Below are positions 13,542-63,427 of a stretch of DNA of 64,000 nucleotides, in pieces. Source of the DNA: Micromonosporaceae bacterium (GTDB taxonomy: Bacteria; Actinomycetota; Actinomycetes; Mycobacteriales; Micromonosporaceae). The first letter of the stretch is position 1, and the number at the start of each line of letters is the position of its first letter. The position numbers and the translations under genes are program-made. The DNA lies in contig DATFRR010000010.1 in assembly GCA_035263025.1 (NCBI GenBank), positions 10,456 through 74,455 on the forward strand, read 5' to 3'. Below the pieces are notes generated by a model. It made no database searches. It saw nothing but the letters and a program-made list of their open reading frames with translations, and was not told the origin of the DNA.

Positions 13542-14936
13542 ATGGTGGACGTAGGTCATCCGACGGTTGCTCTCGTGGCCAAGGACCAAGACGTCGTGCT
13601 CGACCGGCTGTTGGATTACCTCCGGCAACCGAGCGAGAGCGCGACGGGGCACGGGTTCCCGGACGCAACCGATCGGGCGGTGACCGAGATGCGTCTCGCC
13701 GGTCTGACGCCAGAGGTGTTGTCCACTGATGGTCGTCCCGCCGTCGTCGGACGGCGGCCGGGTCCGCCCGGCACGCCGACGGTGCTGATCTACGGCCACT
13801 ACGACGTGCAGCCACCAGGGCCACGCGAGCTTTGGCGCACCGACCCGTATTCGCCGACGATCGCCGGCGGGCGGATCTGGTGCCGCGGCGCCGCCGACAA
13901 CAAGGGCCAGCACTTCGCGCACCTGCAGGCGCTTCGTCTGTTGGTCGAGCGCGACGCGACGTACCCATGCTCGGTCATCATGTTGCTCGACGGCGAGGAG
14001 GAGGTCGGCAGTCCCCACCTGGCCGACCTCGTGCGAGGGCATCGCGACCGGCTCGCGTGCGATGTGGTGATCTGGAGCGACGGACCGGTCCACGACTCCG
14101 GCCAGTGGTGCATCCTGCACGGCGTACGCGGCGTTCTGGGCGTACGCATCGACGCCCACGGCGCGAATCGTGCGCTGCACTCGGGTCACTTCGGCAACGT
14201 CGCACCGAATCCCGCGGTCACCCTCGTCAACGCGTTGGCATCGCTGCGAAGCGACGACGGATCTGTGTCGATCGACGGATTCTATGACGGCGTGGAGCCG
14301 ATCCCCGACGAGGCGGCGGCCGCGTTCGAACGGCTGCCGACTGATCTTGATGCGGTGCTGGCCGACATCGGGTTGGAGGCGATGGATCCCAGCTATCGCA
14401 ACCTCAGCTACTTCGAGCGCCTGGCGAGCATCCCGACGCTGACCATCAACGGAATCACCACCGGCGATCTGAACCGCACGATCATTCCGCACACGGCCAG
14501 TGCGCGGCTGGACGTACGACTCGTGGCCGGTCAAAGCCCCGAGCGCGTGTTCGCGGCGATCGAGTCGCATCTCGGCCGCCACGCTCCGTCGGTGACGGTG
14601 ACACGTGAGATGGCCGTGCCTCCGTCACGTACGCCGCTGACCAACCCGTACACGCCCGTCATCTCCGCGGCGATTCAGGACGTCACTGGCGAGGCGCCGC
14701 TGCTGGTACCCAGCTACGGCGGCACGCTGCCGGACTACGTCTGGACCCAGCTGCTTGGCGTCGCGAGCCTCGGGATTCCGATCGGCAATCCCGACGAGGC
14801 CAACCACGCCCCGAACGAGAACCTCGAGATCCGGCGCTACCTGACTGGCATCGCCATGTCGATGACCATACTGCGCGCCATCGGCACCGGCGTGGCTGAC
14901 CCATCGGACCACTCAAGTGGGGTGCACGACCGGTAA
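13542..14936 (+). CDS. M20/M25/M40 family metallopeptidase (dipeptidase-like)
   Basis: Motifs are VLIYGHYDVQP, RGAADNKG, DGEEEVGS and ANHAPNENL. An RBS GGAGGAGGA precedes ATG 13542. Confidence 0.85.
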   Translation: MVDVGHPTVALVAKDQDVVLDRLLDYLRQPSESATGHGFPDATDRAVTEMRLAGLTPEVLSTDGRPAVVGRRPGPPGTPTVLIYGHYDVQPPGPRELWRTDPYSPTIAGGRIWCRGAADNKGQHFAHLQALRLLVERDATYPCSVIMLLDGEEEVGSPHLADLVRGHRDRLACDVVIWSDGPVHDSGQWCILHGVRGVLGVRIDAHGANRALHSGHFGNVAPNPAVTLVNALASLRSDDGSVSIDGFYDGVEPIPDEAAAAFERLPTDLDAVLADIGLEAMDPSYRNLSYFERLASIPTLTINGITTGDLNRTIIPHTASARLDVRLVAGQSPERVFAAIESHLGRHAPSVTVTREMAVPPSRTPLTNPYTPVISAAIQDVTGEAPLLVPSYGGTLPDYVWTQLLGVASLGIPIGNPDEANHAPNENLEIRRYLTGIAMSMTILRAIGTGVADPSDHSSGVHDR

Positions 14937-31300: not shown

Positions 31301-31662
31301 GCGGTAGCGGTCACGGTGCAGACCATGCCGGTTGTGTCGGCAGCGACGGTGTAGGCCATGTCCCGCGTCTGCAGATCGGTGAATGTCGAACCGTCGGTGA
31401 CGAGATACTGCATCGTCTCGACGTTGGTGGTGTCGATAGTCGGTGCGTACACATCGGAGAGAACGCCGTCCGCGACGGTGTACCAGATCTTGGACGTCGT
31501 GTTCCGGGCCGTACCGAGGCAGTCCTTGCGGGCAAGGTCGAAGTGCGAGAGCGCGCCCGGGCCGCCCGGGGCTCCTACCGTGTCTGCCATCGCGCTACCG
31601 GGCGCGGTCGTGAGCAGCCCGATCACAAGGGCGCCGACAACTAACACAGATCTGGCTCGCAT
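28339..31662 (-). CDS. Secreted multidomain GH15 enzyme, glucodextranase-like
   Basis: About 1107 aa. It has a signal peptide MRARSVLVVGALVIGLLTTAPGSAMA and a glucoamylase N-domain (LSHFDLARKDCLGTA...IWYTVADGVLSDVYAPT). The GH15 catalytic blocks are YREVFSRDLYEA, GLVPEQVW and LTWGAGSQV. A long beta-rich C-terminal region follows. The start is set at ATG 31662. Confidence 0.85.
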   Translation of the reverse strand: MRARSVLVVGALVIGLLTTAPGSAMADTVGAPGGPGALSHFDLARKDCLGTARNTTSKIWYTVADGVLSDVYAPTIDTTNVETMQYLVTDGSTFTDLQTRDMAYTVAADTTGMVCTVTATARSGAYQLTSTYLTDPGRDSVVVHTEYKPLTAAASRFRLYVRLDATVGGNGGGGAGNGGADSATIDTTTGSPVPVSYDTNTQTNAANRDYAVPSFLALRASPPFTAASSGFVGTASDGLTELDAKHGVDPSYTEAVGGNVEQTARLTLDKHGATTLALGFGTTQAAAVATAGATVSKPFASLVGKYRSGWLSYDGALRPPSSALAGLTAAQQAAAVRDYYVSANVLKASEDKTFAGAIVASLASPWGQSVSAGDPNNTYFGSYREVFSRDLYEAWTGLLTDGDLATARDATRFLFLRQQLADGSMPRNSLVNGKTAPDSFNTQLDEVAYPILMALQSGLGHDTVLWPHIQAAADYLISHGPSFGPERWEEQSGYSPSTIAAEIAGLVAAGTIAQQHGDTVDARVWLATADQYQRSIKGWTVTTNGPLSSDPYFIRLSKTGDPNAAISYNVGNGGPTLDQRQVIDAGFQELVRLGELSAADPDVANSLKVVDATIEKQTPSGTGWLRYNGDGYGDCDVASGNDCSVQGAPWPPTGKGTGHIWPVLSAERGEQDLATGQAASAGQLLAAIDTMSSGVGLVPEQVWDTTDVLASPYGTDPAVASIGLRNGHPDGSAAPLTWGAGSQVRLTADLTAGRVLEKPTQTVQRYVTHTQGATPLTVTSPADQTAATSPIDVAGTAAAGATIDVADVATDQNSATTHVTTTAAEDGSFAVTIPPAAGNNVLVITSTAADGGTAQVVRSVVSDVVNGTLLFDQTDPTGDDNGPGNYAYPTASDFHAGAFDLTDFQVYDTGSTVTFRVQTRDLSPTFGSPEGAQLVDVYVHEPGASPTSTDPSFDALNPEPAQRNYQIDPADAWSRLIEVQGFGQRFIDANTNTVGTVAISANAISRYITFAVDKAALGGTPTSGWAFTVTLTGQDGFSADQARTFAATPQPFNFGECAASSADPHCTFDPNLVPKVMDTVVPSGVLQSDELDYTQHSPVVLKGVAMP

Positions 31663-32075
31663 GGCGGACCTCCGGCTCGAGGCTGATTGACGCGGCTCTA
31701 ATCGCATCGACGCCGGTGCCATCTGTCAAGGCCGTGTTGTGCGACATGCGATCCGAGCCGGGCTGCACCTCGAGGCGGGCGTTGCCCGGAGGTTCCGGCC
31801 GTGGCATTCTCGATGCAGGTGATGAGGCTCGCCGTAACCGCGGAACGCTCCGCTGATGGCTTCTACCCACGCTCGCGTTGATGGCAAGACCAGACGGCGC
31901 GGCACAACGGTAGGCAGTGCGGCGGTGGGGCTCGCCGAGAATTGCCGGCATCGAACACCGGCCAACGGTCCCTACTCGACACGACGACGAGTAGGCACGG
32001 TGAGCCGGCATGCCGACCCCCGAACGCGCGGCGCAGGTTAGGCGTTGCGGTTGCGCCGCGAGCCGCGGCGACATC

Positions 32076-47176: not shown

Positions 47177-47215
47177 TTGACAGCTTGCGCCAACCGATGT
47201 GCAATATATTGCATG
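47177..47215 (+). promoter_or_regulatory. Candidate promoter (TTGACA-17 nt-TGCAAT) with a perfect 14-bp palindrome, predicting a leaderless gntR-acdS transcript
   Basis: TTGACA is at 47177-47182, followed by a 17-nt spacer and TGCAAT at 47200-47205. The palindrome TGCAATATATTGCA (47200-47213) ends on the A of ATG 47213. No RBS-like sequence lies upstream of that ATG. Confidence 0.5.
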
Positions 47216-47872
47216 CCGATCCCGCCTGGCGCGGCCGCCGTGCTGTCCCGATCCTTGCTGCGTGATGACGTCTACGTGCGTTTGCGCGATGCGATCGTGG
47301 ACGGCACCTTCGCGCCTGGCGAGCAGCTGCGCGACGGTGAACTCGCGCAGTGGCTCGGCGTCTCCCGTACGCCGGTTCGTGAGGCGCTGTTGCGGTTGGG
47401 CCAGGCCGGGCTGGTGGTCGTGGCGCCCGGCCGATCCACCGTGGTTAGCACGCTCGACGCTCGCGCGGCGCACGATGCGCAGGCGGTTGTCGCAGCGATG
47501 CATGAACTCGCCGTTGCCACCGCCGTGCCGCTTCTGACCCGCGCCGACCTGGCACAGATGCGGGAGGCGAACGCTCGGTTCGACGCGGCGATCGCGACGG
47601 GCGACGTCGACGCGGCGCTCGCGGCCGACGACGAATTCCACGGCATCCCGGTGCGGGCCGCCGGAAACGCGGCCGTCGTCGCGGTCCTGGAGCAGTTCAC
47701 CCCGCTGGTACGCCGACTCGAGCGGATCCGTTTCGCCAGCCTCGCGGGGCGCGGTTCGGTTGCCCGGCACACCCGGATGGTCGACCTGTGTGAACAGGGT
47801 GACGTGGCCGCCGCAGCCGCCGTGTCCCGCGAGACCTGGCAGACCCTTGACCCCAACGGAGACCTGCGATGA
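47213..47872 (+). CDS. GntR-family (FadR/FCD-type) transcriptional regulator
   Basis: The wHTH is [31 protein letters not shown]. The FCD-like helical C-terminus carries DDEFHGIP and SVARHTRMV. An ATGA overlap links it to acdS. Confidence 0.85.
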
Positions 47873-48888
47873 AGCTTCACGAGTTCCCCCGGCATCAGCT
47901 CACCTTTGGCGCGAGCCCAATCCACCCGCTCAACCGGCTCGCCGACCACCTCGGCGGCGCTCGCATCTGGGCGAAGCGCGAGGACGTCAATAGTGGCCTG
48001 GCGTTCGGCGGCAACAAGATCCGCAAGCTGGAGTACATCGTCCCCGACGTGCTCAACAGCGGCGCCGACACGCTGGTGTCGATCGGCGGCGTGCAGAGCA
48101 ACCACACCCGCCAGGTCGCGGCGGTGGCGGCGCACCTCGGGCTCAAGTGTCGGCTCGTTCAGGAGCGCTGGGTGGACTGGGATGACCCGGTCAACGACAA
48201 GGTCGGCAACGTCCTGCTCAGCCGCATTATGGGCGCCGACGTCCGGTTAGATCCGGCAGGCTTCGACATAGGCGTACGCCCTTCGTGGCAGGACGCGATC
48301 TCGGAGGTCGAGGCGGCCGGCGGCAAACCGTACGCGATCCCGGCCGGCGCGTCCGAGCATCCGCTGGGCGGGCTGGGCTTCGCCAACTGGGCCTTCGAGG
48401 TCGCCGAACAGGAGAAGCAGCTCGGAGTCTTCTTCGACACGATCATCGTCTGTACCGTGACGGGCTCGACGCACGCCGGCATGATCGCGGGGTTTGCGTG
48501 TCTGCAAGAGAACGATGGCCGTGCCCGCCGGGTACTCGGGATCGACGCCTCGGCCACCTTGGAAGCGACCCGCGCCCAGGTCGAGCGCATCGCCCGAAAC
48601 ACCGCGGCACTCATTGAGCTCGACCGCGACCTGCGCCCGGACGAGATCACTGTGCTCGAAGGCTGGGCGGGGGACTACTACGGGATCCCGGTCGAGTCGA
48701 CGGTCGAGGCCATCCGACTCTCCGGCCGACTAGAGGGCATGATTATCGACCCGGTCTACGAGGGCAAATCGATGGCCGGACTCATCGATCTCGTGACCTC
48801 CGGCGAGATCGGCGCGACCTCCACGGTTCTCTACGCACACCTCGGCGGGCAGCCTGCGCTCAACGCGTACTCGCGGATCTTCGCCTGA
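47869..48888 (+). CDS. acdS: 1-aminocyclopropane-1-carboxylate (ACC) deaminase
   Basis: The PLP Lys is in [11 protein letters not shown]. Other motifs are [22 protein letters not shown] and [15 protein letters not shown]. The Glu (YEGKS) and Leu (HLGG) residues that distinguish true ACC deaminases from D-cysteine desulfhydrases are both present. Confidence 0.9.
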
Positions 48889-50245: not shown

Positions 50246-51184
50246 ATGCGCAAGAGACTTGGGGTCGTGATCGCGGCGGCGGCTGCGGCGGTCCTGGTAG
50301 CGAGCGCGCCGGCAAACGCGATCACAAACGGCCAGCCCGACGCGGGTGCGCATCCGTCGGTCGGCGAGCTTTTGTTCTTCGTCCCCGATGAGCCCGACTC
50401 GAGGTTCAATGACTCCGGAGCGTGGTTCACGTGCACCGGGACTCTGCTAAGTGACACGGTTGTGCTGTCCGCGGGTCACTGCACGTACGCGATCGGCAAG
50501 GACGGCGCGTCCACAACCGCCGGCGGTGGCAATGGCTCCGGTGGCAACGACGTGTGGATCGACTTCAACGATGCACCAGACTTCTCGATCCTGCCGCCCA
50601 GCTCGTCGTACGGCCGCGACCAGAACCCGCAGCGCTACCACGACTGGGCGACCGCGCTCAACGCATCCAGCGAGTGGCACCGTGCCACCTCGCACCCGCA
50701 CCCGCAGTTCGACCCGAACCAGTTCTTCCTTCATGATGCGGGCGTCATCGTGCTGGACCAGCCGGTCTCGTCCGGCCAGCACGGCCGCATCTCTCCGGCC
50801 GGCTTCCTCGACCAATTCCAGACCGCTCCGAGCAACACGCAGCGGTTCACGGTCGTCGGGTACGGCCTGAACAAGGAACTACCGCACGCCGACTTCGGGG
50901 GCGATGTCCGGTTCGCCGGCACCACGAAGCTCGTCACGTTGAACGGCACGTTCGGTGTCGAACAAGGCACAATCGCGCGGTTCAGCAACGACAATGGCAA
51001 AACCCATCAGGGCGGTACGTGCTTCGGCGACTCCGGTGGGCCAACGTTCGTCGCGGGCACCACACAGATCGTCGCCGTGACGTCGTTCGGTCTCAGCCCG
51101 AACTGCACCGGTACCGATGACGAATACCGCATTGACCAGAGCGACGACCTGACGTTCCTCGCCGGGTTCGGCATCACGCCGTAG
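50246..51184 (+). CDS. Secreted trypsin-like (S1 family) serine protease
   Basis: The signal peptide is followed by ITNG. The catalytic His is in LSAGHC and the catalytic Ser in CFGDSGGP. Confidence 0.85.
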   Translation: MRKRLGVVIAAAAAAVLVASAPANAITNGQPDAGAHPSVGELLFFVPDEPDSRFNDSGAWFTCTGTLLSDTVVLSAGHCTYAIGKDGASTTAGGGNGSGGNDVWIDFNDAPDFSILPPSSSYGRDQNPQRYHDWATALNASSEWHRATSHPHPQFDPNQFFLHDAGVIVLDQPVSSGQHGRISPAGFLDQFQTAPSNTQRFTVVGYGLNKELPHADFGGDVRFAGTTKLVTLNGTFGVEQGTIARFSNDNGKTHQGGTCFGDSGGPTFVAGTTQIVAVTSFGLSPNCTGTDDEYRIDQSDDLTFLAGFGITP

Positions 51185-51293
51185 CGCGTTCGTCGCTCGG
51201 GTTCGCTGTTATCGACCGGCGGCCACCCGGCATCACTCCGATGCCGCGGTGGCCGCCGCGCCATGGGGCTCTAATGACTCCGCGAGCGGCGCT

Positions 51294-52163
51294 TCAGCCG
51301 CCGTTGGCGGAAAAGTGCATGTAGTCCTTGAGCGATCGCCATGTCCCGCCCCACTGCCACCCGACCGCGGCGAAGGCCCGCACGACTGGTCCGTTGGGCA
51401 GGACCATCCCCGGTCGCACGTCGGCCCGGTCAAGGTAGGAGGTGGCCAGCTCCGGCAGCACGATCTTGCCCCGGTGCTCCGGGTTCTGGAACGGGTCTAT
51501 GTCCACGGCGAGCCCGTACGCGTGCTGGGACCACGCCGTCTCGCCTCGTACCGGCCGGCAGACGAACGCCTCGGTGGTGTTGCCGTCGCCGGTCGGCGCC
51601 GCGTGTATCTGCCTAGGGTCGGTAATCTGCATTTGCTCGATCGGAAAGTTGGCTGCGAAGAGTCGTCCGAACACGGTCACCATGTCTCTCGCCGCCCGTG
51701 CATTGACCAGCAACTCGCCGGTATGCGCGAGCCCGTCGAAGCCGCGGAAGCTGACCGTGAGGTAGCGCAGGTCGGCTGCCGCGACCGGGCACCGCTTGGT
51801 CCAGGTGGACCGGGCGAGCACGCTCGCCGACACCTTCTGGATCGTGGCGTGGAACCGGCCGTCGGGCGGCGGCGGCAGCACGTCGACCGTGATGATGGAC
51901 CGGTTGCGCAACTCCGGCGGGGTGTTCTGGGCCGCGGCGAACCCGTTCGGCCCCACCGGAAGGGGCCGCGTTCCCAGCCATTTTGGGGCGGCGCTGGCGT
52001 TCCCGATGCGGGTAACGGCCGGCGTCGGGTGCGTTCCTGCGGATCGGCTTGCTCCCGGGCCGGCAAGGACGCCGGAGCAGCCGCCTAACGCGTACGCGAG
52101 GCACACAACCACGACCAGCGGGCCCGCCACACGGGCCGCACCGCGCCGCACCGTCAACTCCAT
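51294..52163 (-). CDS. M15-family (VanY / D-Ala-D-Ala carboxypeptidase-like) metallopeptidase lipoprotein
   Basis: The lipobox is LGGCSG. The Zn ligands are in SQHAYGLAVDIDP and DYMHFS. Confidence 0.8.
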   Translation of the reverse strand: MELTVRRGAARVAGPLVVVVCLAYALGGCSGVLAGPGASRSAGTHPTPAVTRIGNASAAPKWLGTRPLPVGPNGFAAAQNTPPELRNRSIITVDVLPPPPDGRFHATIQKVSASVLARSTWTKRCPVAAADLRYLTVSFRGFDGLAHTGELLVNARAARDMVTVFGRLFAANFPIEQMQITDPRQIHAAPTGDGNTTEAFVCRPVRGETAWSQHAYGLAVDIDPFQNPEHRGKIVLPELATSYLDRADVRPGMVLPNGPVVRAFAAVGWQWGGTWRSLKDYMHFSANGG

Positions 52164-53178: not shown

Positions 53179-53907
53179 TTAGCGTGGCACATCGCCGGCC
53201 GTCGCGTGCTCGGCGGCGGCGAACACACCCAGTGGGTGATCCAACGAGGCCGCCGGCGCGACGGCGGTAATCAGTAGGCCATCCACCGCCATCCAGCGGC
53301 CGCTGCATGTGCCTCGGGGGGAGCCGACCGCAACCGGGTCATCATGCGGCGTCAGCGTTGCGACGAAAGAGTTCTCGTTCAAGTTCAACGCTATCTCCGC
53401 GTCCTCAAAGCCGAGCCACGCGCGCATGAGTGGATACCACGCCTTGTAAACGGACTCCTTGGCACTAAAGAGCAATCGATCCCAGCGCACCGCTGGCACC
53501 GCATCGGCGAGCCGAGACACCGCGACACGCTCGCGGGACGTCAACACCGTTGAGACCAACGCGTTTGGCAGCGGCTCGTTGGGCTCGGCGTCGATGCCGA
53601 TCGTCCGTACTATCGCAGCCCTGGCGACCGCCGCTGCGCGGTAGCCGTCGCAATGGGTCATGCTTCCGACGATTCCGGGTGGCCAGAGCGGATCCCGACC
53701 GGTTCCCGACGGGATCGGTACGGGTGGCAGGCCGAGCGCGGCGAGTGCGCGGCGCGCACAATGTCGCACTGTCGCGTACTCCCGACGACGCCGATCGACA
53801 GCGCCGCTGATGAAGGCCTCCTCTTCTGGGAACAGGACGGCGGCGGATTCATCCGTGGTCGCCTCCGCGCTGACCACCGCCGTCGGCAGGATCGCCTCGA
53901 TGGTCAT
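53179..53907 (-). CDS. 4'-phosphopantetheinyl transferase, Sfp/EntD (PptT-like) type
   Basis: Motifs are RRREYATVRHCARRAL, WPPGIVGSMTHC, GIDAEP and FSAKESVYKAW. The start is ATG 53907, preceded by GGAGGAAG. Confidence 0.85.
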   Translation of the reverse strand: MTIEAILPTAVVSAEATTDESAAVLFPEEEAFISGAVDRRRREYATVRHCARRALAALGLPPVPIPSGTGRDPLWPPGIVGSMTHCDGYRAAAVARAAIVRTIGIDAEPNEPLPNALVSTVLTSRERVAVSRLADAVPAVRWDRLLFSAKESVYKAWYPLMRAWLGFEDAEIALNLNENSFVATLTPHDDPVAVGSPRGTCSGRWMAVDGLLITAVAPAASLDHPLGVFAAAEHATAGDVPR

Positions 53908-54632
53908 CGTCTTCCTCCGGGTGGCGGACACGTGTTCGTGGGACTGCGCGGCCGGACTCCGGCCCGCGGCACTAAGACCTCATACGATCTTGTGCCCACT
54001 AGGCGTTCAATGTGTCAGCTTGGCGAAACGGATTGCGCGGCGACACGGTGACACGTTGACGGCACGGCCGGGGGATCCAGCGGACCGCGGGCACAGGGCC
54101 GGCGGCAGAGGCCGCTCGACGGACGCGGCCGAGATGACTCGCGCCACACGTTCGGCGCGATGGTCCACATTGGCCAGTCGCCGTGTTCTACGGCTTGTCG
54201 ATCATCGTCGCATTGATCCGTGATCGGATTGGCGCTCCTACAAGTTGTCGTGACAGCGTGACGCGTGCAAGGCGAGTTGGTTGATGTGATCCGTCTCGCG
54301 TACCCCCGCTCTGGATCCCGGTTTGATCTTTGTTTTTCCGCAATTTTCGTCCGGCGCTTCCTGGCTGCCGATACCGTTCCGGTTGATGAGGTTGCGTGCT
54401 GAACGAGTATGTGGAATGCGGTTGAGCGTTCGGCGCAGCGCATCTTCGGTTGCCGGTGTGTACAGGAGACGACGCACCAGGAGACGGTGACACAAGGACT
54501 TCCACGAATTCGACGGTCGTGTCCCGCGAATCGCCAGAATCGTCGACAACATCGATGCCGGTCGGTATCCGCGCGGTGGCATTGGCTGGCGTCCTGTCCA
54601 CCTTTCTTTCCCGCTGGGAGGCATGAGCGCTC

Positions 54633-57254
54633 GTGCTGGACAAGTCTGTCGATGTACTGACGGTTGATCTGGCTGAGTCGACGACCAGTGACGGCACCCT
54701 CGTGGGCCCGGCCGGCACCGAACAGATCCTGGCCGCGGTGCTGGCCGACGTGCTGGATGTCGATCGGGTGTCGGTTGACAGCCACTTCTTCGACGACCTG
54801 GGCGCCAACTCGCTGACGATGGCGCACTTCTGTGCGCGCGTTCGAAAGCGGGACGACCTGCCGTCGGTGTCGATGAAGGACATCTATCGCAGCCCAACCG
54901 TCAAGAGTCTCGCGGAAGATCTCGCCGAGGAAGTTCCCGAGCCGACCGAATCCGCTGTCGCCACGTCGACCGAGGCAACGGTTGAGGTGCCGACCCGCGC
55001 CAGCACGCGACAATACGTGCTCTGCGGTGTGCTTCAGCTCTTGACCTTCCTCGCGTACACCGTGCTGCTTGCTCTCATTGTCACGGCCGGGTACGAGTGG
55101 ATCGCCTCGGGCACCAGCATTCTCGACTACTACATCCGAGCCGTGATCGTCGGCGCGGCCACGTTCGTCGCACTGTGCGTCCTGCCGATCGCCGCGAAGT
55201 GGACGCTGGTCGGCCGATGGAAGTCGCGCGAGATCCGGATATGGAGCCTCGGGTACGTACGGTTCTGGATCGTCAAGACATTGGTGCAACGCAATCTTCT
55301 GGTGCTGCTGTTCGTCGGCTCGCCGCTCTACCCGCTCTACCTGCGGGCGCTGGGTGCCAAGGTCGGGCGCGGCGTCGCAATCTTCTCCAGATCGGTGCCG
55401 GTGTGCACCGACCTGTTGACCATTGGCGACGGCACCGTCGTTCGCAAGGACTCACACCTCACGTGCTACCGCGCTCACGCTGGCGTGCTCCAGACGGGGC
55501 CAGTGACGCTCGGAAGGGACGTATTCGTCGGAGAGATGACGGTCGTCGACATCAACACCTCGATGGGCGACGGCGCGCAACTCGGCCATACGTCCTCGCT
55601 TCACCCCGGACAGGCCGTGCCGGCCGGCGAACACTGGCACGGATCCCCCGCGCAGAAGACCGAGATGAACTATCGGACGGTCGAGCCCGCCAAGTGTGGT
55701 GTCATGCGGCGCGTCAGTTATTCGCTGATGCAGGTGTTGATCCTGTTGGTGATCGACGTGCCGATCGCGCTCGCCGCCGCGGACGTTCTGCTTCGTGAAA
55801 TCCCCCGCCTTGGACGGCTCGAGTTCGGACCGCACGTCCTGACGAGCTGGACGTTCTACGTCGTCGGGCTGGTGGTCTCGTTCGCACTGTTCTTCGGCAC
55901 GACCATCGTTGGCCTGGTGCTTGTGACGACGATTCCTCGGCTGTTCAACCTCGCGCTCAAGCCGGGCAAGACATATCGGCTGTACGGCATCCACTACGCG
56001 ATCCACCGAGCGGTCGAGCGCCGGACCAACAGTCAGTTTTTCAAGACGCTCTTTGGCGACAGCTCCAGCATCGTCGGCTACCTCCGCTTGATCGGGTATC
56101 GGCTCCGGAACGTCGAGCAAACCGGGTCGAACTTCGGCACGTACCTCAAACACAGCAATCCCTACCTGAGTGCGGTCGGCAGCGGAACGATGGTGGCGGA
56201 CGGGCTGTCCATCATCAACGCCGACTTCTCGAGCAGTTCATTCCGGCTGAACCCGGCGACCATTGGGCCACAGAACTTTCTCGGCAATGCCATCGCCTAT
56301 CCGTCGCAGGGCAAGACCGGCGACGACTGCCTGATCGCAACCAAGGCGATGGTGCCGATCGAAGGCGAAATCCGGGAGGGCGTTGGGCTTCTGGGCTCGC
56401 CGAGCTTCGAGATCCCTCGGTCGGTCCAGCGCGACACCCAATTCGATCATCTGCGGACCGGACCGTCGCTGCATCGCGCGCTCACCGCAAAAAACAGGCA
56501 CAACGCCGTCACCGCCGCCGGCTACTTGTTTGGCCGATGGATGCATGTCTACGGGCTCACCTTGCTGGCGTGGACAACGACCCGCTTGTACGGCCTTCAG
56601 GGCACCTGGGTGATCGCACTGGCGTCGATCCTGACCCTCGTGTGGACCACCCTCTTCTTCGCCGTCGTGGAGCGTGCCGTGCAGGTGTTCTTGCCGTTGC
56701 GACCGCTCTACTGCTCGATCTACGACCGCAGGTTCTGGCGACACGAACGGTTCTGGAAGAGCGCGGCGGTGACGATGCACCTCCACGCCTTCGACGGCAC
56801 GCCGTTCAAGTCGGGCGTGTGGAGATTGCTGGGCGTACGAATGGGCCGGCGGGTGTTCGACGACGGGTGCGGGATTCCGGAAAAGACGCTCGTGGCGATC
56901 GGCGATGACACGACCCTCAACGCGGGTTCGACCATCCAGTGTCACTCGCAGGAGGACGGCGCCTTCAAGTCCGACCGCATCACGATCGGCGCCGGCTGCA
57001 CGGTGGGCGTCGGCGCCTGGGTCCACTACGGCGTGACGATGGGCGACGGAGCGATGCTCGGCCCCGATGCGTTCCTGATGAAGGGCGAGGACGTCCCACC
57101 GCAGGCGCGGTGGGCCGGCAACCCGGCCCGGGACCTGCGCGATGACCGTGCACTCACCATGCAGCTCCGTGGCACCGGCAGCGACAGCAGGCAGCCGGCC
57201 GCGGTGACGGCCGACACGTCCGCGGCGACTGGAGGAACACGATGCAACGGGTAA
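54633..57254 (+). CDS. Carrier (T) domain fused to a six-TM, triple hexapeptide-repeat membrane domain of the Pls/PosA NRPS-terminal type; no adenylation domain
   Basis: 873 aa. The T domain carries HFFDDLGANSLTMAH, with the Ser codon at 54810-54812. Three pairs of hydrophobic segments lie at about aa 128-188, 358-433 and 630-685. Each pair is followed by a soluble left-handed-beta-helix-like block, for example LGAKVGRGVAIFS...IGDGTVV...VTLGRDVFVGE and LGVRMGRRVFDD...IGDDTTLNAGSTI...ITIGAGCTVGVGAWV. Confidence 0.8.
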   Translation: MLDKSVDVLTVDLAESTTSDGTLVGPAGTEQILAAVLADVLDVDRVSVDSHFFDDLGANSLTMAHFCARVRKRDDLPSVSMKDIYRSPTVKSLAEDLAEEVPEPTESAVATSTEATVEVPTRASTRQYVLCGVLQLLTFLAYTVLLALIVTAGYEWIASGTSILDYYIRAVIVGAATFVALCVLPIAAKWTLVGRWKSREIRIWSLGYVRFWIVKTLVQRNLLVLLFVGSPLYPLYLRALGAKVGRGVAIFSRSVPVCTDLLTIGDGTVVRKDSHLTCYRAHAGVLQTGPVTLGRDVFVGEMTVVDINTSMGDGAQLGHTSSLHPGQAVPAGEHWHGSPAQKTEMNYRTVEPAKCGVMRRVSYSLMQVLILLVIDVPIALAAADVLLREIPRLGRLEFGPHVLTSWTFYVVGLVVSFALFFGTTIVGLVLVTTIPRLFNLALKPGKTYRLYGIHYAIHRAVERRTNSQFFKTLFGDSSSIVGYLRLIGYRLRNVEQTGSNFGTYLKHSNPYLSAVGSGTMVADGLSIINADFSSSSFRLNPATIGPQNFLGNAIAYPSQGKTGDDCLIATKAMVPIEGEIREGVGLLGSPSFEIPRSVQRDTQFDHLRTGPSLHRALTAKNRHNAVTAAGYLFGRWMHVYGLTLLAWTTTRLYGLQGTWVIALASILTLVWTTLFFAVVERAVQVFLPLRPLYCSIYDRRFWRHERFWKSAAVTMHLHAFDGTPFKSGVWRLLGVRMGRRVFDDGCGIPEKTLVAIGDDTTLNAGSTIQCHSQEDGAFKSDRITIGAGCTVGVGAWVHYGVTMGDGAMLGPDAFLMKGEDVPPQARWAGNPARDLRDDRALTMQLRGTGSDSRQPAAVTADTSAATGGTRCNG

Positions 57255-59734
57255 CCGCCGCCGGTCGGGAATACTGGACGAGCGCGTTGGCGTCTGGCGG
57301 CTTGGCGTCAGTTCCACGGTGGACGGTGAACCCAACTCCCGGCGTGGCAACGTTCGAGGTTGTCATCCCACACGACACCGTGGCGGCCCTGCACGGGCTC
57401 GCTGGCGCGATGGGCATCCGACTCAGCGCGGTCTTGCTAGCGGCGCACGCCAAGGTGATTGCCGCGCTGTGCGGCGAAGCTCACGTCACGACCGGCTATG
57501 TTGCGACGGACGGCGACGATCCGCTGCCGTGCGTACTGACGACCGACGCTGACTCGTGGCGTGGTCTGCTGCTCGACTCTCATCGCGCGCAGGCACACCT
57601 GTTGCCGCACAAGGACTTTCCGATCCACGACCTGATGCGCGAACTGCACGTGTCCGGGCCGCTGTTCGACACGATGTTCGACGCGACCGGTGGCGATGGA
57701 AGTCTTGCCGACGAGGTGGCATTGCGGGTTGGTGCCGTACATCGGGGCGAGGAGCTAGTGCTGCGAACGCGGTACCGCACCGATGTGCTCGACGCCGACA
57801 GTGCCGCGCGAGTCACCGGCTACTACCTCTCCGCGCTCGCGCAGATCGCTACCGAGCCGGATGCCGAGCATCGTCGGCGCAGCCTAGTCTCCGCCGAGGA
57901 GCACGATTTCCAGCTCGACGCGCTTGCCGGGCCGCATCGGGAGCTGCCCGATGGGCGAGTGCATGAGCTTTTCGAAGCGCGGGTACGCCAGTGCCCGGAT
58001 TCCGTGGCAGCTGTGCACGGCAACGTCCGGTGGACCTATCGAGAACTCAACGCCCGCGCCAACCGCTTGGCGCGCGCCTTGCTGGCAGAGGGGCTGCGAC
58101 GCGAAGACGTCGTCGCGGTGGTGACCGAGCGCAACCTCGATTGGATGGCCGCTGTTCTCGCGATCTTCAAGGCTGGTGGGGCGTACCTCCCGATCGAGCC
58201 GCACTTTCCGAGCGATCGCATCGCGACTACGTTGTCGCGCGCCGATTGCCACCTCGTGCTGACCGAACCTGCCAGCACCAAAACGCTAAGCCAGGCCGTC
58301 GCGTCGCGAGCCGACGTTCACACCATGTTCATCCAGGACGCCTACGAAACGGACCGTGCCGAGGACGATCTCGACATTGCGGTTGCGCCGGATCAGCTCG
58401 CGTACATCTACTTCACCTCCGGGTCGACAGGCGAGCCGAAGGGTGCGATGTGCGAGCACGCCGGGATGCTGAACCACATGTACGCCAAGATCGACGATCT
58501 GGACATCGCCGAGGGGTCGATCGTCGCTCAGACTGCCCCACAGTGCTTCGACATCTCCTTGTGGCAGCTCATCTCCGCGGTCCTGGTCGGCGGACAGACG
58601 TTGATAGTCGAGCAGGACGTGATTCTGGACGTACCGCGGTTCACCGACAAGGTTGTCGACGCCCGGGTCGCGGTGCTGCAGGTGGTCCCGTCCTACCTCG
58701 AAGCCGTGGTCTCGCACCTGGAGCAGAGCCCGCAGAAGTTGGCCGACCTACGGTGCGTCTCGGTTACCGGTGAGGCGCTGAAGAAGGAGCTCACCGAGCG
58801 TTGGTTCGCCATCGAGCCAGACATCAAGCTCGTCAACGCGTACGGGCTGACCGAGACCTCGGACGACACGAACCACGAGGTGATGGAAGGCGTACCGAAT
58901 GGGTCAGGTGTGCCGCTCGGCCGGCCGGTCAACAACGTGCGCGTCTACATCGTCGACGAGCACCTGTCGCCCGTTCCGCTCGGCGCGCCCGGCGCGATCG
59001 TGTTCTCCGGTGTGTGTGTCGGACGCGGCTACGTGAACGATCCGGAGCGCACTCGGCTGGCCTTCATGGCCGACCCGCATCGCATCGGCGAACGCCTTTA
59101 CGTGGGCGGTGACTACGGCCGCTGGCGACCCGACGGCAAGGTCGAGTTCCTCGGTAGACATGATTCTCAGGTCAAAATCAACGGCTTCCGCATCGAGATC
59201 GGGGAGATCGAGAACACCCTCCTGCGTGTGCCCGACGTGCGCGACGGCGCCGTGGTGATCACCGAGCGCATCGATGCGAGCAAGCATCTCGTGGCGTTCT
59301 ACTCGGGCACGCGGCCACTGGAACTGGACATCCTGCGGAGCCGACTCTCCGAGTCGCTACCCGAATACATGGTCCCGAGCGCGTTTCATTGGCGAGACAC
59401 TCTGCCACTCACCGCCAACGGGAAGATCGACAAGAAGTCCTTGGCCGCGCTAGCCAGCGACCTAGACATTCTCGACGACCGGGATCCGCCCAGCACGCCC
59501 ACCGAGCAGCGCCTCGCGATCGCCTGGGCGCGAGTGCTCGGAATCTCCGAGGATCAGATCGGTCGCCAGGATCATTTCTTCGACCGCGGCGGCACGTCGC
59601 TGGCCGCGGTGAAGCTCGCGATCACGCTGGACCGCGTGGTGTCACTCAAGGACGTTACACAGCATCCCGTGCTCGCCGATCTGGCCGGCGTCATCGACGG
59701 TCTGCGTACCGGCGAACTCCTGGCCTCTTCTTGA
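57242..59734 (+). CDS. NRPS: C-terminal half of a condensation domain (no HHxxxDG) + adenylation domain + carrier domain; no TE/R domain
   Basis: 830 aa. The A-domain cores are LAYIYFTSGSTGEPKG, FDISLWQ, NAYGLTET, GDYGRWRPDGKVEFLGRHDSQVKINGFRIE and NGKIDKK. The T domain is FFDRGGTSLAAVKL. It overlaps the upstream gene by 13 nt. Confidence 0.9.
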   Translation: MQRVTAAGREYWTSALASGGLASVPRWTVNPTPGVATFEVVIPHDTVAALHGLAGAMGIRLSAVLLAAHAKVIAALCGEAHVTTGYVATDGDDPLPCVLTTDADSWRGLLLDSHRAQAHLLPHKDFPIHDLMRELHVSGPLFDTMFDATGGDGSLADEVALRVGAVHRGEELVLRTRYRTDVLDADSAARVTGYYLSALAQIATEPDAEHRRRSLVSAEEHDFQLDALAGPHRELPDGRVHELFEARVRQCPDSVAAVHGNVRWTYRELNARANRLARALLAEGLRREDVVAVVTERNLDWMAAVLAIFKAGGAYLPIEPHFPSDRIATTLSRADCHLVLTEPASTKTLSQAVASRADVHTMFIQDAYETDRAEDDLDIAVAPDQLAYIYFTSGSTGEPKGAMCEHAGMLNHMYAKIDDLDIAEGSIVAQTAPQCFDISLWQLISAVLVGGQTLIVEQDVILDVPRFTDKVVDARVAVLQVVPSYLEAVVSHLEQSPQKLADLRCVSVTGEALKKELTERWFAIEPDIKLVNAYGLTETSDDTNHEVMEGVPNGSGVPLGRPVNNVRVYIVDEHLSPVPLGAPGAIVFSGVCVGRGYVNDPERTRLAFMADPHRIGERLYVGGDYGRWRPDGKVEFLGRHDSQVKINGFRIEIGEIENTLLRVPDVRDGAVVITERIDASKHLVAFYSGTRPLELDILRSRLSESLPEYMVPSAFHWRDTLPLTANGKIDKKSLAALASDLDILDDRDPPSTPTEQRLAIAWARVLGISEDQIGRQDHFFDRGGTSLAAVKLAITLDRVVSLKDVTQHPVLADLAGVIDGLRTGELLASS

Positions 59735-59757
59735 CGAGAACCGAAAGGACCTTACAG

Positions 59758-60759
59758 ATGTCGTCCTCTTCCGCAATACAGCTGATCGACGTGGACCGCC
59801 AACCAGGCAGGCCGCCGATGATGCAGGTCGACCAGCCGGCAGATGCGCCGGCGTGGGCGACCGAGCACCGGGATGGATTGCGGGCTCTCGTCGCCGTGCA
59901 CGGCGCAATCCTGGTCCGCGGCCTCGGGCTGCATGACGGGGCCGAGATCGCGATGGTGTTCCGCAACCTGTCCAACAGCCTCATGACAGAACGAGAGGCC
60001 TTTGCGCCGCGCCGGATCTATGCCGACGGCGTGTACTCGTCCGCGACGTGGCCGGCGAACCAGCCGATGTGCATGCATCACGAACTGAGCTACGCGCTCG
60101 AAGTGCCGAGCCTGATGCTGTTCGCGTGCGTCACGCCGCCGTCGCAGGGCGGCGCGACCGGCGTGGCCGACTCACCTAGCGTGCTGCGCGCACTGCCGGC
60201 TGAGTTGACCGAGCGCCTGCGCCGTGATGGTTGGCTGCTCACTCGCAACTACAACGACGACATCGGGGCGTCGATCGGCGATGCGTTCGGCACCGACGAT
60301 CCCAGCGCGGTGGAGGCCTATTGCCGCGCGAACGCGATCGACTTCGAGTGGCAGCCCGATGGCGGACTGCGCACTCAGCAACGCCGCGCCGCCGTGGTGC
60401 CTCACCCCGTCACCGGCGAGCCCTGCTGGTTCAACCAGATCGCCTTCCTCAACGAGTGGACCATCGCTCCGGAGATCCGTGAATACCTCGTCGACATGTA
60501 CGGCGAGGACGGCCTGCCATTCAACACCCGCTTCGGCAACGGTGATCCGATTACGGAGGACACCGTCATGCTGCTCAACGGGGTGTACGAGGCGAACACC
60601 GCCCGGGAACCGTGGCGGGCGGGCGACCTGATGCTGGTCGACAACATCCGCACCGCGCACAGCCGGGAAGCCTACGAGGGACCGCGAGAAGTGCTCGTCG
60701 GCATGGCGGACGCCGTCCGCCTCGACAACTCACCGACTGGCGAGGTGACGGCCGCATGA
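59758..60759 (+). CDS. TauD/TfdA-family Fe(II)/2-oxoglutarate dioxygenase, SyrP-like
   Basis: The motifs are MHHELSY (HxE) and the distal His in DNIRTAHSR. The overall pattern resembles NRPS-associated amino-acid beta-hydroxylases. The RBS is GAAAGGA. Confidence 0.8.
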   Translation: MSSSSAIQLIDVDRQPGRPPMMQVDQPADAPAWATEHRDGLRALVAVHGAILVRGLGLHDGAEIAMVFRNLSNSLMTEREAFAPRRIYADGVYSSATWPANQPMCMHHELSYALEVPSLMLFACVTPPSQGGATGVADSPSVLRALPAELTERLRRDGWLLTRNYNDDIGASIGDAFGTDDPSAVEAYCRANAIDFEWQPDGGLRTQQRRAAVVPHPVTGEPCWFNQIAFLNEWTIAPEIREYLVDMYGEDGLPFNTRFGNGDPITEDTVMLLNGVYEANTAREPWRAGDLMLVDNIRTAHSREAYEGPREVLVGMADAVRLDNSPTGEVTAA

Positions 60760-61826
60760 CCGCGATCGAAACAGCTGCCGGGCAAGGCTCCACCAACCGG
60801 CGCAGCGCCGTACCGCCGTTCGCGATGGTCTCGGGCGCGCAGGTCCAGCAGGTCTTGGACGGGCGCGAGAAGGAGATTGTGTCGTTGGTCGAGGCGACGT
60901 ATCGGCTACACGGCGCTGGCGATTCCGTGAACCCGCCGTCGTACTTTCTCCGTTTCCCCGACCGTCCGTCCGCCCGCATCATCGCGCTTCCCGCGTCGAT
61001 CGGCGGTGACGTTCGGGTAGACGGACTGAAGTGGGTTTCCAGCTTTCCCGACAACGTCAGCATCGGTGTGCCGCGCGCATCAGCTGTACTCATCCTGAAC
61101 GATCACGACACGGGCTACCCGTTTGCATGTCTCGAAGGCTCGATCATCAGCGCGACGAGGACCGCCGCGTCGGCGGCGCTCGCCGCGGACTGGCTGAGCC
61201 GGCAACGGCGACGCCCGCGGAGCGTGGGGTTCATCGGAGTCGGTCTGATCGCGCGTTACATCCACGCGTTCATGGCCAGCACCGGCTGGACATTCGACGA
61301 GATCGGCGTCCACGATCTGTCCCCGGACAGCGCATCCGGTTTCCGCGGCTATTTGGAACGCACAGATGTCGCCGGCCGGATCTCCATTTACGACCGCCCG
61401 GAAGACCTGATCCGGTCCAGCGACATGGTGGTGTTTGCCACCGTCGCGAGCCGTCCGTACGTCACGGACGCGTCGTGGTTCGACCACAATCCAGTGGTGT
61501 TGCACGTGTCGCTTCGCGACCTGGCGCCTGAGATCCTGCTCGGCTCGACCAACATCCTCGACGACGTTGACCACTGCATGAAGGCCGACACGTCGCCGCA
61601 TTTGGCAGAACAGCTCACTGGCAATCGTGACTTCCTGACCGGCACGCTGGACGACGTGATGTCCGGCCGGGTAACGGTGCCCGCGCACCGGCCGGCGGTG
61701 TTCTCGCCGTTCGGTCTCGGCGTGCTGGATCTGGCCGTCGGCAAGTTCGTCTACGACGAGGTGGCCCGGTCCGGCGAGCTGCGTGTCGTTGACAACTTCT
61801 TCCACGAGTTACATCGCTACGGCTAA
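60756..61826 (+). CDS. sbnB: SbnB-type NAD-dependent dehydrogenase (ornithine cyclodeaminase/mu-crystallin fold) for L-2,3-diaminopropionate synthesis
   Basis: The OCD fold has the Rossmann motif VGFIGVGLIARY, and the gene is immediately paired with an SbnA-type gene. An ATGA overlap links it to the dioxygenase gene. Confidence 0.75.
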   Translation: MTAIETAAGQGSTNRRSAVPPFAMVSGAQVQQVLDGREKEIVSLVEATYRLHGAGDSVNPPSYFLRFPDRPSARIIALPASIGGDVRVDGLKWVSSFPDNVSIGVPRASAVLILNDHDTGYPFACLEGSIISATRTAASAALAADWLSRQRRRPRSVGFIGVGLIARYIHAFMASTGWTFDEIGVHDLSPDSASGFRGYLERTDVAGRISIYDRPEDLIRSSDMVVFATVASRPYVTDASWFDHNPVVLHVSLRDLAPEILLGSTNILDDVDHCMKADTSPHLAEQLTGNRDFLTGTLDDVMSGRVTVPAHRPAVFSPFGLGVLDLAVGKFVYDEVARSGELRVVDNFFHELHRYG

Positions 61827-61861
61827 CGGCCTAGTGCTCTGCGACAGATGAGGAGGCCACC

Positions 61862-62848
61862 ATGCCAGTCATTTCCGTTCCTGAGGGCTTCAACGAAGAG
61901 GAGCTCTACGTCGACCTTCAGTCGATGTTCGGGCACTCGCTCTACCTGAAGTGTGAGGGCTTTAACTTCGCCGGGTCGATCAAGCTCAAGGCCGCGGCCG
62001 AGATGGTCGAGGCAGCGGAGCAGGACGGAATTCTTCGGCCCGACTCGATCCTGATCGAGTCGTCATCGGGGAACCTGGGCGTGGCGCTCAGCATGATTGC
62101 CGCGAGCAAGGGCTACCAGTTCGTGTGCGTGACAGATTCGCGGTGCAACCTGACCACCAGGCGTGCTATGGAGGCGCTGGGCAGCCGGGTGCACATCATC
62201 AACGATCCGGACGCGAAGGGCGGTCTCCTTGGTGCGCGCCTCGACTACGTCCGCGAGCAGTGCGAGAACGATGACCGGTACGTGTGGTTCAACCAGTACG
62301 CCAACCCACACAACTGGCTGGCGCACTACCGCCGTACCGCACCGGCGATCGCCCGGAAGTTCCCTAACCTGGACGTACTGTTCGTCGGCGCGGGTACGAC
62401 CGGGACGTTGATGGGCTGCGCGCGCTTCTTCCGGGACTGGCACTGGCCGGTGCGGATCGTCGCGGTGGACAGCGTCGGGTCGGTGACGTTCGGTGGGACG
62501 TCGGGTCGCCGGATGATCCCCGGACTGGGTACGAGCGTACGGCCGCCGATCCTCGACGAGGCCTACGTTGACGACGTCGTGCGAATCGAGGAAGCGGATA
62601 CCATTCGTGCCTGCCATCGCCTGGCCAGAAGCGGATTCCTGTTCGGCGGATCCACCGGAACGATTGTCAGTGGCGCCGTCCAATGGCTAGGCCAGCACAA
62701 CGGCCATGGCCTCACGGCCGTCGCCATCGCACCAGATCTTGGCGAGCGCTACCTGGACACGGTGTACCAAACGAACTGGCTCCAGGATCTCTACGGCGAA
62801 GAGGTGCTCGACACCGCCGAGCTGACCGCGGGCGCCCGGACCGGTTGA
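61862..62848 (+). CDS. sbnA: SbnA-type PLP-dependent enzyme (cysteine-synthase fold) for L-2,3-diaminopropionate synthesis
   Basis: The motifs are LKCEGFNFAGSIKLK (PLP Lys), ESSSGNLG, WFNQYANPHNW, IVAVDSVGSVTFGG, PGLGTSVRPPIL, GGSTGTIV and PDLGERYLDTVY. They are collinear with S. aureus SbnA as I remember it. The RBS is GAGGAGG. Confidence 0.85.
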   Translation: MPVISVPEGFNEEELYVDLQSMFGHSLYLKCEGFNFAGSIKLKAAAEMVEAAEQDGILRPDSILIESSSGNLGVALSMIAASKGYQFVCVTDSRCNLTTRRAMEALGSRVHIINDPDAKGGLLGARLDYVREQCENDDRYVWFNQYANPHNWLAHYRRTAPAIARKFPNLDVLFVGAGTTGTLMGCARFFRDWHWPVRIVAVDSVGSVTFGGTSGRRMIPGLGTSVRPPILDEAYVDDVVRIEEADTIRACHRLARSGFLFGGSTGTIVSGAVQWLGQHNGHGLTAVAIAPDLGERYLDTVYQTNWLQDLYGEEVLDTAELTAGARTG

Positions 62849-62884: not shown

Positions 62885-63427
62885 GTGACCGTGTTCGAGC
62901 CGGGCTGTGTGATCGACCGGCGTGAAGTGCTGCACGGGCTGCCGTGGCTCGTAGTGCCTGTTCAGGTCGTGCGCGACGATGGCGAAGAACTGGCCGTCTA
63001 CGTGGCCGAGGGAACGCCGTTCACGTTTCCCGATCATCCATTCGGTCGCCACCCGTGGAGTCAGCGCACGCGTTGGACGGACACCAGCGTGTTACAGGTG
63101 CACCGCGCGGGTGACGCGCACGCCGTGTGGGGCATGTACGAGCAGGGCGTCTTTGCCGGGTGGTATATCAACTTCCAAGCACCGCTACACCGATGGAGCG
63201 GCGGTTTCGACACGCTTGATCACGGCGTGGACATGTGGATGCCGAACGGCGCGAGCGAGTGGCAGTGGAAGGACCTCGAAGACGTAGCGCGGCTGGTGCA
63301 GGATGGCCGCATTACCGAGGACGAGGCTCGTGACGTGTGGTCCGAGACGGAACGCGTCGCTAGTTCACTGCGTCGCGGCGCTCGGTGGTGGCAGCACTGG
63401 GACGCGTGGAGTCCCGGCCATCGCTAG
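62885..63427 (+). CDS. DUF402-family protein (FomD-like nucleotide phosphatase fold)
   Basis: The sequence WYINFQAPL...FDTLDHGVDMWM...WQWKDLEDV...GRITEDEA is the DUF402 pattern. The start codon is GTG. Confidence 0.7.
   Translation: MTVFEPGCVIDRREVLHGLPWLVVPVQVVRDDGEELAVYVAEGTPFTFPDHPFGRHPWSQRTRWTDTSVLQVHRAGDAHAVWGMYEQGVFAGWYINFQAPLHRWSGGFDTLDHGVDMWMPNGASEWQWKDLEDVARLVQDGRITEDEARDVWSETERVASSLRRGARWWQHWDAWSPGHR

Follow-up and report, generated by a model that had tools for sequence, protein, structure and literature searches.

Cationic isopeptide polymers are assembled by membrane-bound nonribosomal peptide synthetases (NRPSs) of the Pls/PosA family. The characterized members, comprising Pls, PDAPs, PosA, the poly-diaminobutyrate (poly-Dab) synthetases and the poly-β-lysine synthetase, are single proteins in which an adenylation (A) domain, a carrier (T) domain and a membrane domain are joined (PMC4668381; PMC10522769). 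This one-protein design holds for all characterized enzymes making ε-polylysine, poly-Dab, poly-diaminopropionate (poly-Dap), poly-ornithine and poly-β-lysine, and published genome mining has been keyed to the specificity code of the cis A domain. A different arrangement is found in a 64,000-nt stretch of a Micromonosporaceae bacterium (assembly GCA_035263025.1, contig DATFRR010000010.1; the whole stretch is called the window hereafter), in which a gene designated T-PlsC encodes a carrier domain and a Pls-type membrane domain with no A domain. The reading preferred here, with a confidence somewhat better than even, is that T-PlsC is a split member of the family, served in trans by the A domain of the protein encoded immediately downstream, C*-A-T. 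The product is probably a cationic diaminopropionate oligomer or polymer. T-PlsC stands first in a compact operon of five genes (T-PlsC, C*-A-T, a TauD-type dioxygenase, SbnB and SbnA; 54633-62848, ~8.2 kb) and belongs to a widespread split branch of the polylysine-synthetase family that is, as far as literature searches show, uncharacterized.

PDAPs of Streptomyces albulus PD-1 resembles this system in its Pls-type C-terminal membrane domain, which follows a carrier domain, and in its supply of L-2,3-diaminopropionate (L-Dap) by a cysteine-synthase-like and an ornithine-cyclodeaminase-like enzyme, NjxA and NjxB, which are SbnA/SbnB-like (PMC4668381). PDAPs is, however, a single A-T-PlsC protein, whereas the operon described here activates its substrate through a separate protein with an unrelated pocket, of the type found in the third A domain (A3) of SulM, and adds a second carrier, the dioxygenase and, in many relatives, a thioesterase (TE). 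Pls of S. albulus and PosA of A. baumannii share with T-PlsC the TIGR02353 domain, six transmembrane (TM) helices in three pairs, and a polymerase protein devoid of canonical condensation (C) and TE domains; three pseudo-symmetric left-handed β-helices (LbH) are modeled for both PosA and T-PlsC (PMC10522769). The differences are that T-PlsC has no A domain, that its substrate is likely Dap, and that the A domain of its partner lacks the Glu-3 hallmark discussed below. Moreover, posA forms a single-gene locus, unlike the multi-gene T-PlsC operon.

Family membership is carried by the polymerization domain. Residues 130-832 of T-PlsC align with the entire TIGR02353 model ('Pls/PosA family NRPS', positions 1-695 of 695; E 6.8e-222), an NCBIfam equivalog-domain model whose curated cutoff of 423.1 bits is far exceeded (Table 1). 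Three features of the family are thus present together: the ~700-aa domain, six paired TM helices with three LbH blocks, and an adjoining N-terminal carrier. The fourth, an A domain in the same polypeptide, is missing, as neither PF00501 nor TIGR01733 matches an AMP-binding domain in the open reading frame (ORF), and tblastn detects no A-domain remnant in the 700-bp spacer upstream of the gene. An earlier note, made from the DNA letters and ORF translations, had proposed a carrier followed by three units of two TM helices and a hexapeptide block, with no A domain in cis. Pfam, TIGR02353, hydropathy and an AlphaFold2 (AF2) model agree with that architecture. The same note had suggested kinship with Pls and had named ordinary acetyltransferases as the alternative that would undo it. 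This alternative fails: acetyltransferase family models, with cutoffs of 150-350 bits, score 40 bits at best and reach block 3 only, while the whole domain matches TIGR02353. Enzymes of the MAT, GAT, SAT or WcaF type are soluble homotrimers of 180-300 aa, whereas the blocks of T-PlsC are embedded in a membrane protein.

Could T-PlsC instead be a decaying, non-functional relic, or a mere hexapeptide acetyltransferase? Loss of a catalytic domain often opens gene decay, and the Pfam hexapeptide matches are weak on their own. Yet the reading frame is intact, with a coding-type G+C content at third codon positions (GC3) of 0.84; orthologues retain 57-95% identity to it across genera, with at least 180 invariant columns including the phosphopantetheine serine; carrier domains among the relatives have been duplicated, not lost; and the match to the Pls/PosA model is full-length. 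Such a reading therefore deserves scarcely any credence, and that of a pseudogene or relic is rejected on conservation.

The N-terminal carrier (T1) contains the motif DLGANSL, in which the phosphopantetheine serine, Ser60 (codon 54810-54812), lies exactly where the earlier note had put it and is invariant in an alignment of 40 homologues. BLAST does not match T1 to T2, the carrier of the partner protein, and T1 shares 54% identity with the carrier found in a canonical A-T-PlsC paralogue; it is therefore regarded as the orthologue of the Pls donor carrier. Conservation among homologues begins at about residue 4, so the GTG start is correctly called. The closest relatives are a metagenome protein with 100% identity (P0001, contig L001) and a gene at 95% identity in a Micromonosporaceae metagenome-assembled genome (MAG; L006).

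The partner protein had been described earlier as an A-T protein. This is correct for its A and T domains, but it is not a plain A-T protein, as a 235-aa lobe (C*) precedes them; the lobe, the second carrier T2 and the TauD enzyme had all escaped the earlier reading of the locus. The PF00668 match of C* spans profile positions 391-453 of 456, i.e., the final ~60 positions of a condensation domain, and the HHxxxDG motif is absent from the C* sequence. Even so truncated, the lobe is conserved in orthologues at 45-61% identity.

The specificity code of the partner A domain was obtained by motif-anchored extraction, its residues (437, 438, 441, 480, 507, 509, 533, 541, 542 and 728) being mapped from motif positions rather than by structure superposition. 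The same code is found in 60 of 67 orthologous A domains. SulM A3, from sulfazecin biosynthesis, carries the code DVWEMNADD, a 'mode 3' L-Dap pocket in which two Asp residues bind the β-amine in crystal structure 9N1V, and in its BLAST homologues position 2 is occupied by Ile and position 4 often by Gln (PMC12042044). The partner code fits this pattern, D-[V/I]-W-[E/Q]-x-x-A-D-D-K, and the SulA3N structure (9n1u/9n1v) is a direct PDB match of the domain at 264.6 bits. In addition, SbnA and SbnB equivalogs, both above cutoff and encoded by adjacent genes, provide the L-Dap pathway. Because the pocket type and these two genes point the same way, L-Dap, the substrate guessed in the earlier note, is well supported as the predicted substrate of the partner A domain, though not proven. 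The sulfazecin cluster also has Dap-supply genes, SulG and SulH (PMC12042044). SulM itself differs in being a multimodular NRPS that makes a monobactam and ends in a Cys-type TE; here the A domain would serve a Pls-type polymerase, and the TE of orthologues is Ser-type (GHSSG). The sulfazecin cluster contains a 2-oxoglutarate dioxygenase as well, SulO.

Genome comparisons connect the partner A domain to T1. A scan of one genome per species returned at least 562 relatives of T-PlsC, from which the best 80 loci were taken; synteny was counted over 69 distinct loci, three of them from separate searches, each having 7 kb or more of sequence downstream. A C*-A gene lies immediately 3′ of T-PlsC in 58 of the 69 (84%), C*-A plus TauD is found in 57, and TauD, SbnB and SbnA occur together in 53. 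The hosts are Streptomyces, Amycolatopsis, Pseudonocardia, Kibdelosporangium, Actinacidiphila and several MAGs. Three natural fusions unite what the window encodes separately: P0126 (T-PlsC-C*-A), P0179 (T-PlsC-C*-A-T-TE, 1983 aa) and P0146 (T-PlsC-C*-A-T-TE-TauD, 2309 aa). As Rosetta-stone evidence, they point to a single machine formed by these proteins, with TauD active in an assembly-line context. The domain order of the fusions is permuted relative to Pls, with the polymerase ahead of the A domain. Together with the sole A domain in 64 kb, the 13-nt gene overlap, the decayed cis A domains described below, the invariant Ser60 and the T-domain duplications, these observations support indirectly the earlier proposal that the downstream A domain loads T1. 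Judged from sequence comparison, trans-loading is thus well supported.

Precedents exist for A-less NRPS modules loaded in trans and for A-T(-TE)/oxygenase cassettes, among them NikP1/NikQ and the TauD-type β-hydroxylases of siderophore pathways, which are recruited by C-like 'interface' domains. The present operon resembles these in that one A domain would serve the carrier of another protein, and in the truncated C-like domain that precedes A-T beside a TauD-family enzyme. It differs from the 'interface' systems in that C* is merely a C-terminal lobe. To our knowledge, no trans-loaded cassette has been described with a Pls-type polymerase.

A cis A domain is found in decay at four orthologous loci (L029, L027, L019 and L017), all of which retain the downstream C*-A-T and TauD genes. 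In L029 the A3 motif is degenerate (TSDSDGRPTG) and A10 is missing; in L027 A3 is likewise degenerate and the domain ends after A7; in L017 and L019 it ends after A5. The L029 remnant still has a pocket with Phe-2 and Glu-3, as reported for PDAP/PDAB synthetases, which is a further likeness to PDAPs. In a neighbor-joining tree rooted on the canonical A-T-PlsC paralogue, the remnant-bearing loci and the orphans are nested among A-less operon-type sequences; the tree was computed from a simple distance with no support values and is suggestive only. The ancestor may be pictured as an ordinary A-T-PlsC synthetase of the poly-Dap type that already possessed the accessory C*-A-T(-TE)/TauD module. 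With both A domains Dap-specific, the cis copy would have become redundant and decayed. Since the accessory module was present before this decay, it must do more than load T1. Relatives also vary in the number of tandem carriers before the polymerization domain (one to four copies). Two to four are found in L020, L022, L026, L027, L029, L030, L042, L050, L065, L079, L082 and L083, and those of L029 are near-identical repeats, linkers included.

The AF2 model, built from a 40-sequence alignment (mean predicted local distance difference test (pLDDT) 69.7; predicted template modeling score (pTM) 0.74), shows three helix hairpins and three β-helices, like the published PosA model. As the same architecture has been published for Pls and modeled for PosA (PMC10522769), the fold is not new. 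The hairpins correspond to six long hydrophobic segments that hydropathy resolves as three pairs. Each hairpin is followed by one strand, by two or three short helices, and by a run of short strands typical of an LbH. The short helices are the 'amphipathic stretch' of the earlier note, whose quoted examples are both confirmed, at residues 203-248 (unit 1) and 696-741 (unit 3); in unit 1, amphipathic helices at residues 206-239 precede the β-helix. A low-confidence loop at residues 566-604 follows block 2. Units 1 and 3 are clearly homologous by sequence (BLASTP E 3e-17, 28% identity over 207 aa; hhalign probability 98.7%, E 2.7e-16). Unit 2 is divergent: it aligns with unit 1 weakly, though colinearly (BLASTP E 0.002; hhalign E 2e-4), and its secondary-structure elements follow the same order as those of the other units. 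The earlier view of three homologous units is thus secure for the outer two and holds in attenuated form for the middle one. Foldseek searches of the model against the PDB return only LbH acyltransferases (serine, maltose and galactoside acetyltransferases), and no solved structure of a Pls-type domain was found in the PDB by sequence or by fold. An invariant motif, Q769-x-H771-S-Q-E-D775, is confined to unit 3, and His771 might be considered a candidate catalytic residue.

Since T1 must be cytoplasmic and six TM helices separate the units, all three soluble blocks should lie in the cytoplasm. This topology bears on a non-polymerase function, in which one or a few carrier-bound Dap residues would be moved to a cell-envelope or membrane acceptor in the style of D-alanylation by Dlt. 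T-PlsC is an integral membrane protein, there is no exporter gene in the operon, and some orthologues (L022) are extended by a seventh TM helix and by a pair of peptidoglycan-binding domains outside the cytoplasm, all of which would suit such a transfer. The β-helix blocks, however, would face the cytoplasm without exception, given the even number of TM helices; the high-scoring domain is complete, and characterized family members are all polymerases (PMC10522769); and the cell-wall genes of the neighborhood are not conserved. Envelope transfer is for these reasons distinctly improbable. In the C-terminal extension of L022 (Pseudonocardia nigra, 12971-13741), the seventh TM helix is followed by a Pro-rich linker and the two PG_binding_1 domains, an arrangement predicted to place a peptidoglycan anchor outside the cell. 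The T-PlsC proteins of L042 and L065 end in long Pro/Ala-rich repeat tails.

Returning to the split polymerase, the following course can be proposed. SbnA and SbnB would make L-Dap, which the single A domain, with its SulM-A3-type pocket, would adenylate and load onto its own T2 in cis and onto T1 in trans. The β-helix assembly would then move the Dap acyl group from T1 to an amine acceptor, as in canonical Pls, and repeated transfer would yield a β-linked Dap oligomer or polymer at the membrane. The most likely task of the accessory module (T2, TauD and, in half of the orthologues, TE) is to provide or modify a particular unit, for which a starter, an acceptor, a side branch and an oxidized residue are all candidates; where present, TE would release something from T2. 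Because of this module, the product is probably not plain poly-Dap. The dioxygenase has an intact HxE...H triad (HxE in MHHELS, followed by the distal His). Its PDB relatives are remote, namely At3g21360 (E 3e-20), 9yut (E 3e-16) and PvcB, and it matches no NCBIfam equivalog that would place it in a characterized subfamily.

Several points weigh against this proposal. The trans-loading of T1 is read from context only. TauD, which is conserved, and TE, found in about half of the orthologues, have no role in the canonical free-acceptor mechanism of Pls. The substrate of TauD is puzzling, because hydroxylation at C3 of free or thioester-bound (unacylated) Dap would give an unstable carbinolamine. 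The partner pocket, with Trp at position 3 and Asp-Asp at positions 8/9, is of 'mode 3' and not 'mode 1', the type with a Glu at position 3 that anchors the side-chain amine and is the hallmark of characterized cationic homopoly(amino acid) (CHPA) synthetases (PMC12042044). Unit 2 is not only divergent, but its β-helix is modeled with low confidence. Finally, at 11 of the 69 loci the A-less gene is an orphan, with neither an A domain nor an NRPS gene inside 10 kb (L014, L033, L034, L047, L053, L054, L060, L071, L072, L082 and L083); genes for ClpB, NhaA, AraC and glutaminase are among their neighbors. Since such orphans exist, some A-less enzymes must be served differently.

The orphans are also what would favor loading of T1 by an A domain elsewhere in the genome, such as that of a canonical Pls paralogue or a stand-alone A protein, with C*-A-T and TauD making a separate product; so would the coexistence of canonical and A-less Pls copies in some genomes (L058). 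Nevertheless, the overlap of the T-PlsC and C*-A-T genes, their synteny at 84% of loci, the Rosetta-stone fusions and the detection by tblastn of a single A domain in the whole window, that of the partner protein, render such distant loading very improbable. Operon and orphan copies occur together in some genomes (L024/L034 and L052/L071), and L083 has two convergent A-less T-PlsC copies.

A further alternative is a tethered-chain or branched-polymer mechanism. Here T2 would hold the acceptor, the growing chain or a Dap-Dap unit, T1 would act as donor, TauD would oxidize the tethered intermediate on-line, and TE, where present, or the polymerase would release the chain. The two carriers are unrelated to each other, about half of the orthologous partner proteins, for example that of Streptomyces sp. 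NBC_01384 (L056), have a Ser-type TE (GHSSG) behind T2, the fusion P0146 runs T2-TE-TauD, and the module is kept even beside a surviving cis A remnant, all of which fit a tethered chain. Furthermore, a branched Dap polymer is known from Streptomyces through citations in PMC9606270 and PMC10522769. Full-text literature searches, with subscription-only papers outside their coverage, gave no account of the biosynthesis or genes of this comb-like polymer. On the other side, characterized Pls enzymes use free acceptors (PMC4668381), the window's own partner protein is devoid of TE, no oxidation of the comb-like polymer is reported that would account for TauD, and C* lacks the catalytic HHxxxDG lobe. 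A two-carrier mode is therefore offered tentatively, as possible but unlikely. If true, it would be a previously undescribed mode of Pls-type synthesis, and its product would be a branched or oxidized poly-Dap from dozens of Streptomyces, Amycolatopsis and Pseudonocardia species. The earlier note had considered that the N-terminal T domain might hold the acceptor or chain; the reverse is likelier, with T2 as any such tether, because T1 is the orthologue of the canonical donor carrier.

The A-less form is frequent and already annotated automatically. Among the best 120 matches at 90% clustering, most have PP-binding and hexapeptide-repeat domains with no AMP-binding domain, and those named by NCBI are called 'Pls/PosA family non-ribosomal peptide synthetase'. 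When 1.84 billion cluster representatives were searched exhaustively with HMMER, 4161 clusters matched at E <= 1e-3, and 847 of these reached E <= 1e-30. The best 150 include 78 full-length matches, of which 40 have room for A-T ahead of the domain and 31 for carrier(s) only; six others start fewer than 60 residues from the domain and one starts between residues 350 and 539. A-less proteins thus account for ~40% of the nearest 50%-identity clusters. The earlier note, borne out on architecture, family, substrate and probable trans-loading, had implied that this form is rare; in that respect it overestimated how unusual the protein is. The literature is another matter: full-text searches found no paper on an A-less or trans-loaded Pls-type enzyme or on this operon (subscription-only journals lie outside their coverage, and an earlier description may exist), and a term search of the main survey paper of the family found no mention of A-less homologues.

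A large branch has thus been neglected, as many of the at least 562 relatives have a polymerase with no A domain. In the present case the polymerase would be served by a Dap-activating module that is separate and of another construction, and that includes an extra carrier, a dioxygenase and, in many relatives, a TE. The compactness of the operon makes it directly testable by heterologous expression, and it is a likely source of a new cationic polymer or oligomer. It also offers a natural system in which to ask how a Pls-type domain recognizes a carrier loaded in trans, a question that bears on the engineering of polycationic materials and on the domain's unsolved catalytic mechanism. Two further A-less proteins, one with a C-terminal class-III aminotransferase (P0125) and one with C-terminal TPR repeats (P0122), hint at additional variants of the Pls/PosA family.

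Table 1. Features of the T-PlsC operon and its upstream neighbor, in window coordinates
Feature	Coordinates	Strand	Evidence or remark
Sfp-type 4′-phosphopantetheinyl transferase	53179..53931	-	PF17837 + PF01648; PptT/Npt-like; divergent, upstream
T-PlsC, A-less Pls/PosA-family protein	54633..57254	+	873 aa, GTG start; TIGR02353 738.6 bits (cutoff 423.1)
Carrier domain T1, residues 32-95	54726..54917	+	PF00550 E 1.3e-8
TM helix pair 1, residues 125-158 + 163-193	55005..55211	+	hydropathy; AF2 helices
Left-handed β-helix block 1, ~residues 241-343	55353..55661	+	AF2 pLDDT 84-94; homologous to block 3
TM helix pair 2, residues 357-394 + 406-439	55701..55949	+	hydropathy; AF2 helices
Divergent β-helix block 2, ~residues 514-560	56172..56312	+	AF2 strands pLDDT 50-85; weak colinear similarity to unit 1
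TM helix pair 3, residues 611-656 + 658-686	56463..56690	+	hydropathy; AF2 helices
Left-handed β-helix block 3, residues 735-834	56835..57134	+	PF00132/PF14602 at 783-814; Foldseek; invariant columns
C*-A-T partner protein, 830 aa	57242..59734	+	start overlaps T-PlsC stop by 13 nt
C*, C-terminal condensation-domain lobe, 235 aa	57242..57946	+	PF00668 match restricted to residues 160-222
Adenylation domain, code DIWQSTADDK	57971..59425	+	PF00501 E 3.3e-79
Second carrier domain T2, residues 757-817	59510..59692	+	PF00550
TauD/TfdA-family Fe(II)/2-oxoglutarate dioxygenase	59758..60759	+	PF02668 E 1.3e-39
SbnB-family L-Dap biosynthesis dehydrogenase	60756..61826	+	TIGR03944 414.6 bits (cutoff 326.9)
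SbnA-family PLP (pyridoxal phosphate) enzyme of L-Dap biosynthesis	61862..62848	+	TIGR03945 387.4 bits (cutoff 349.95)

The genes of the operon are tightly spaced, with gaps of 23 nt, -4 nt and 35 nt after C*-A-T, TauD and SbnB, respectively. The phosphopantetheinyl transferase gene (Table 1) is a possible local helper of the operon and stands next to it only in the window and in its closest relative (L006). Neighboring genes for a protease, an M15 peptidase, a ROK protein and a DUF402 protein were considered as parts of the system and rejected, as they are not conserved at other loci. The first two, a trypsin-like serine protease (+) and an M15 (VanY-like) D-Ala-D-Ala carboxypeptidase (-), occupy window positions 50246-52163, between a 1-aminocyclopropane-1-carboxylate (ACC) deaminase gene and the transferase gene, and the pair is not conserved beside the operon in more distant related loci. 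The DUF402/FomD-like gene (62885-63427, +) begins 36 nt 3′ of sbnA and is shared only with the identical contig L001. Further upstream, a GntR/FCD regulator gene is followed by that of the ACC deaminase (47177-48888, +; TIGR01274 526 bits, cutoff 392), and this pair appears unrelated to the operon.

An Rfam scan of the whole window at gathering thresholds detects no regulatory RNA in the spacer upstream of T-PlsC. Its sole match is a fluoride riboswitch (RF01734, 31809-31872, +; 43.3 bits against a gathering score of 34), flanked by a glucodextranase-like gene (28339-31722, -) and a + strand ORF with weak helix-turn-helix (HTH) matches only; no obvious crcB was identified downstream of it. G+C is slightly lower across the operon (54-62 kb) than in the remaining window, with the overall minimum of 0.63 at 54001-56000 (0.65-0.70 elsewhere), and the region may have been acquired horizontally.

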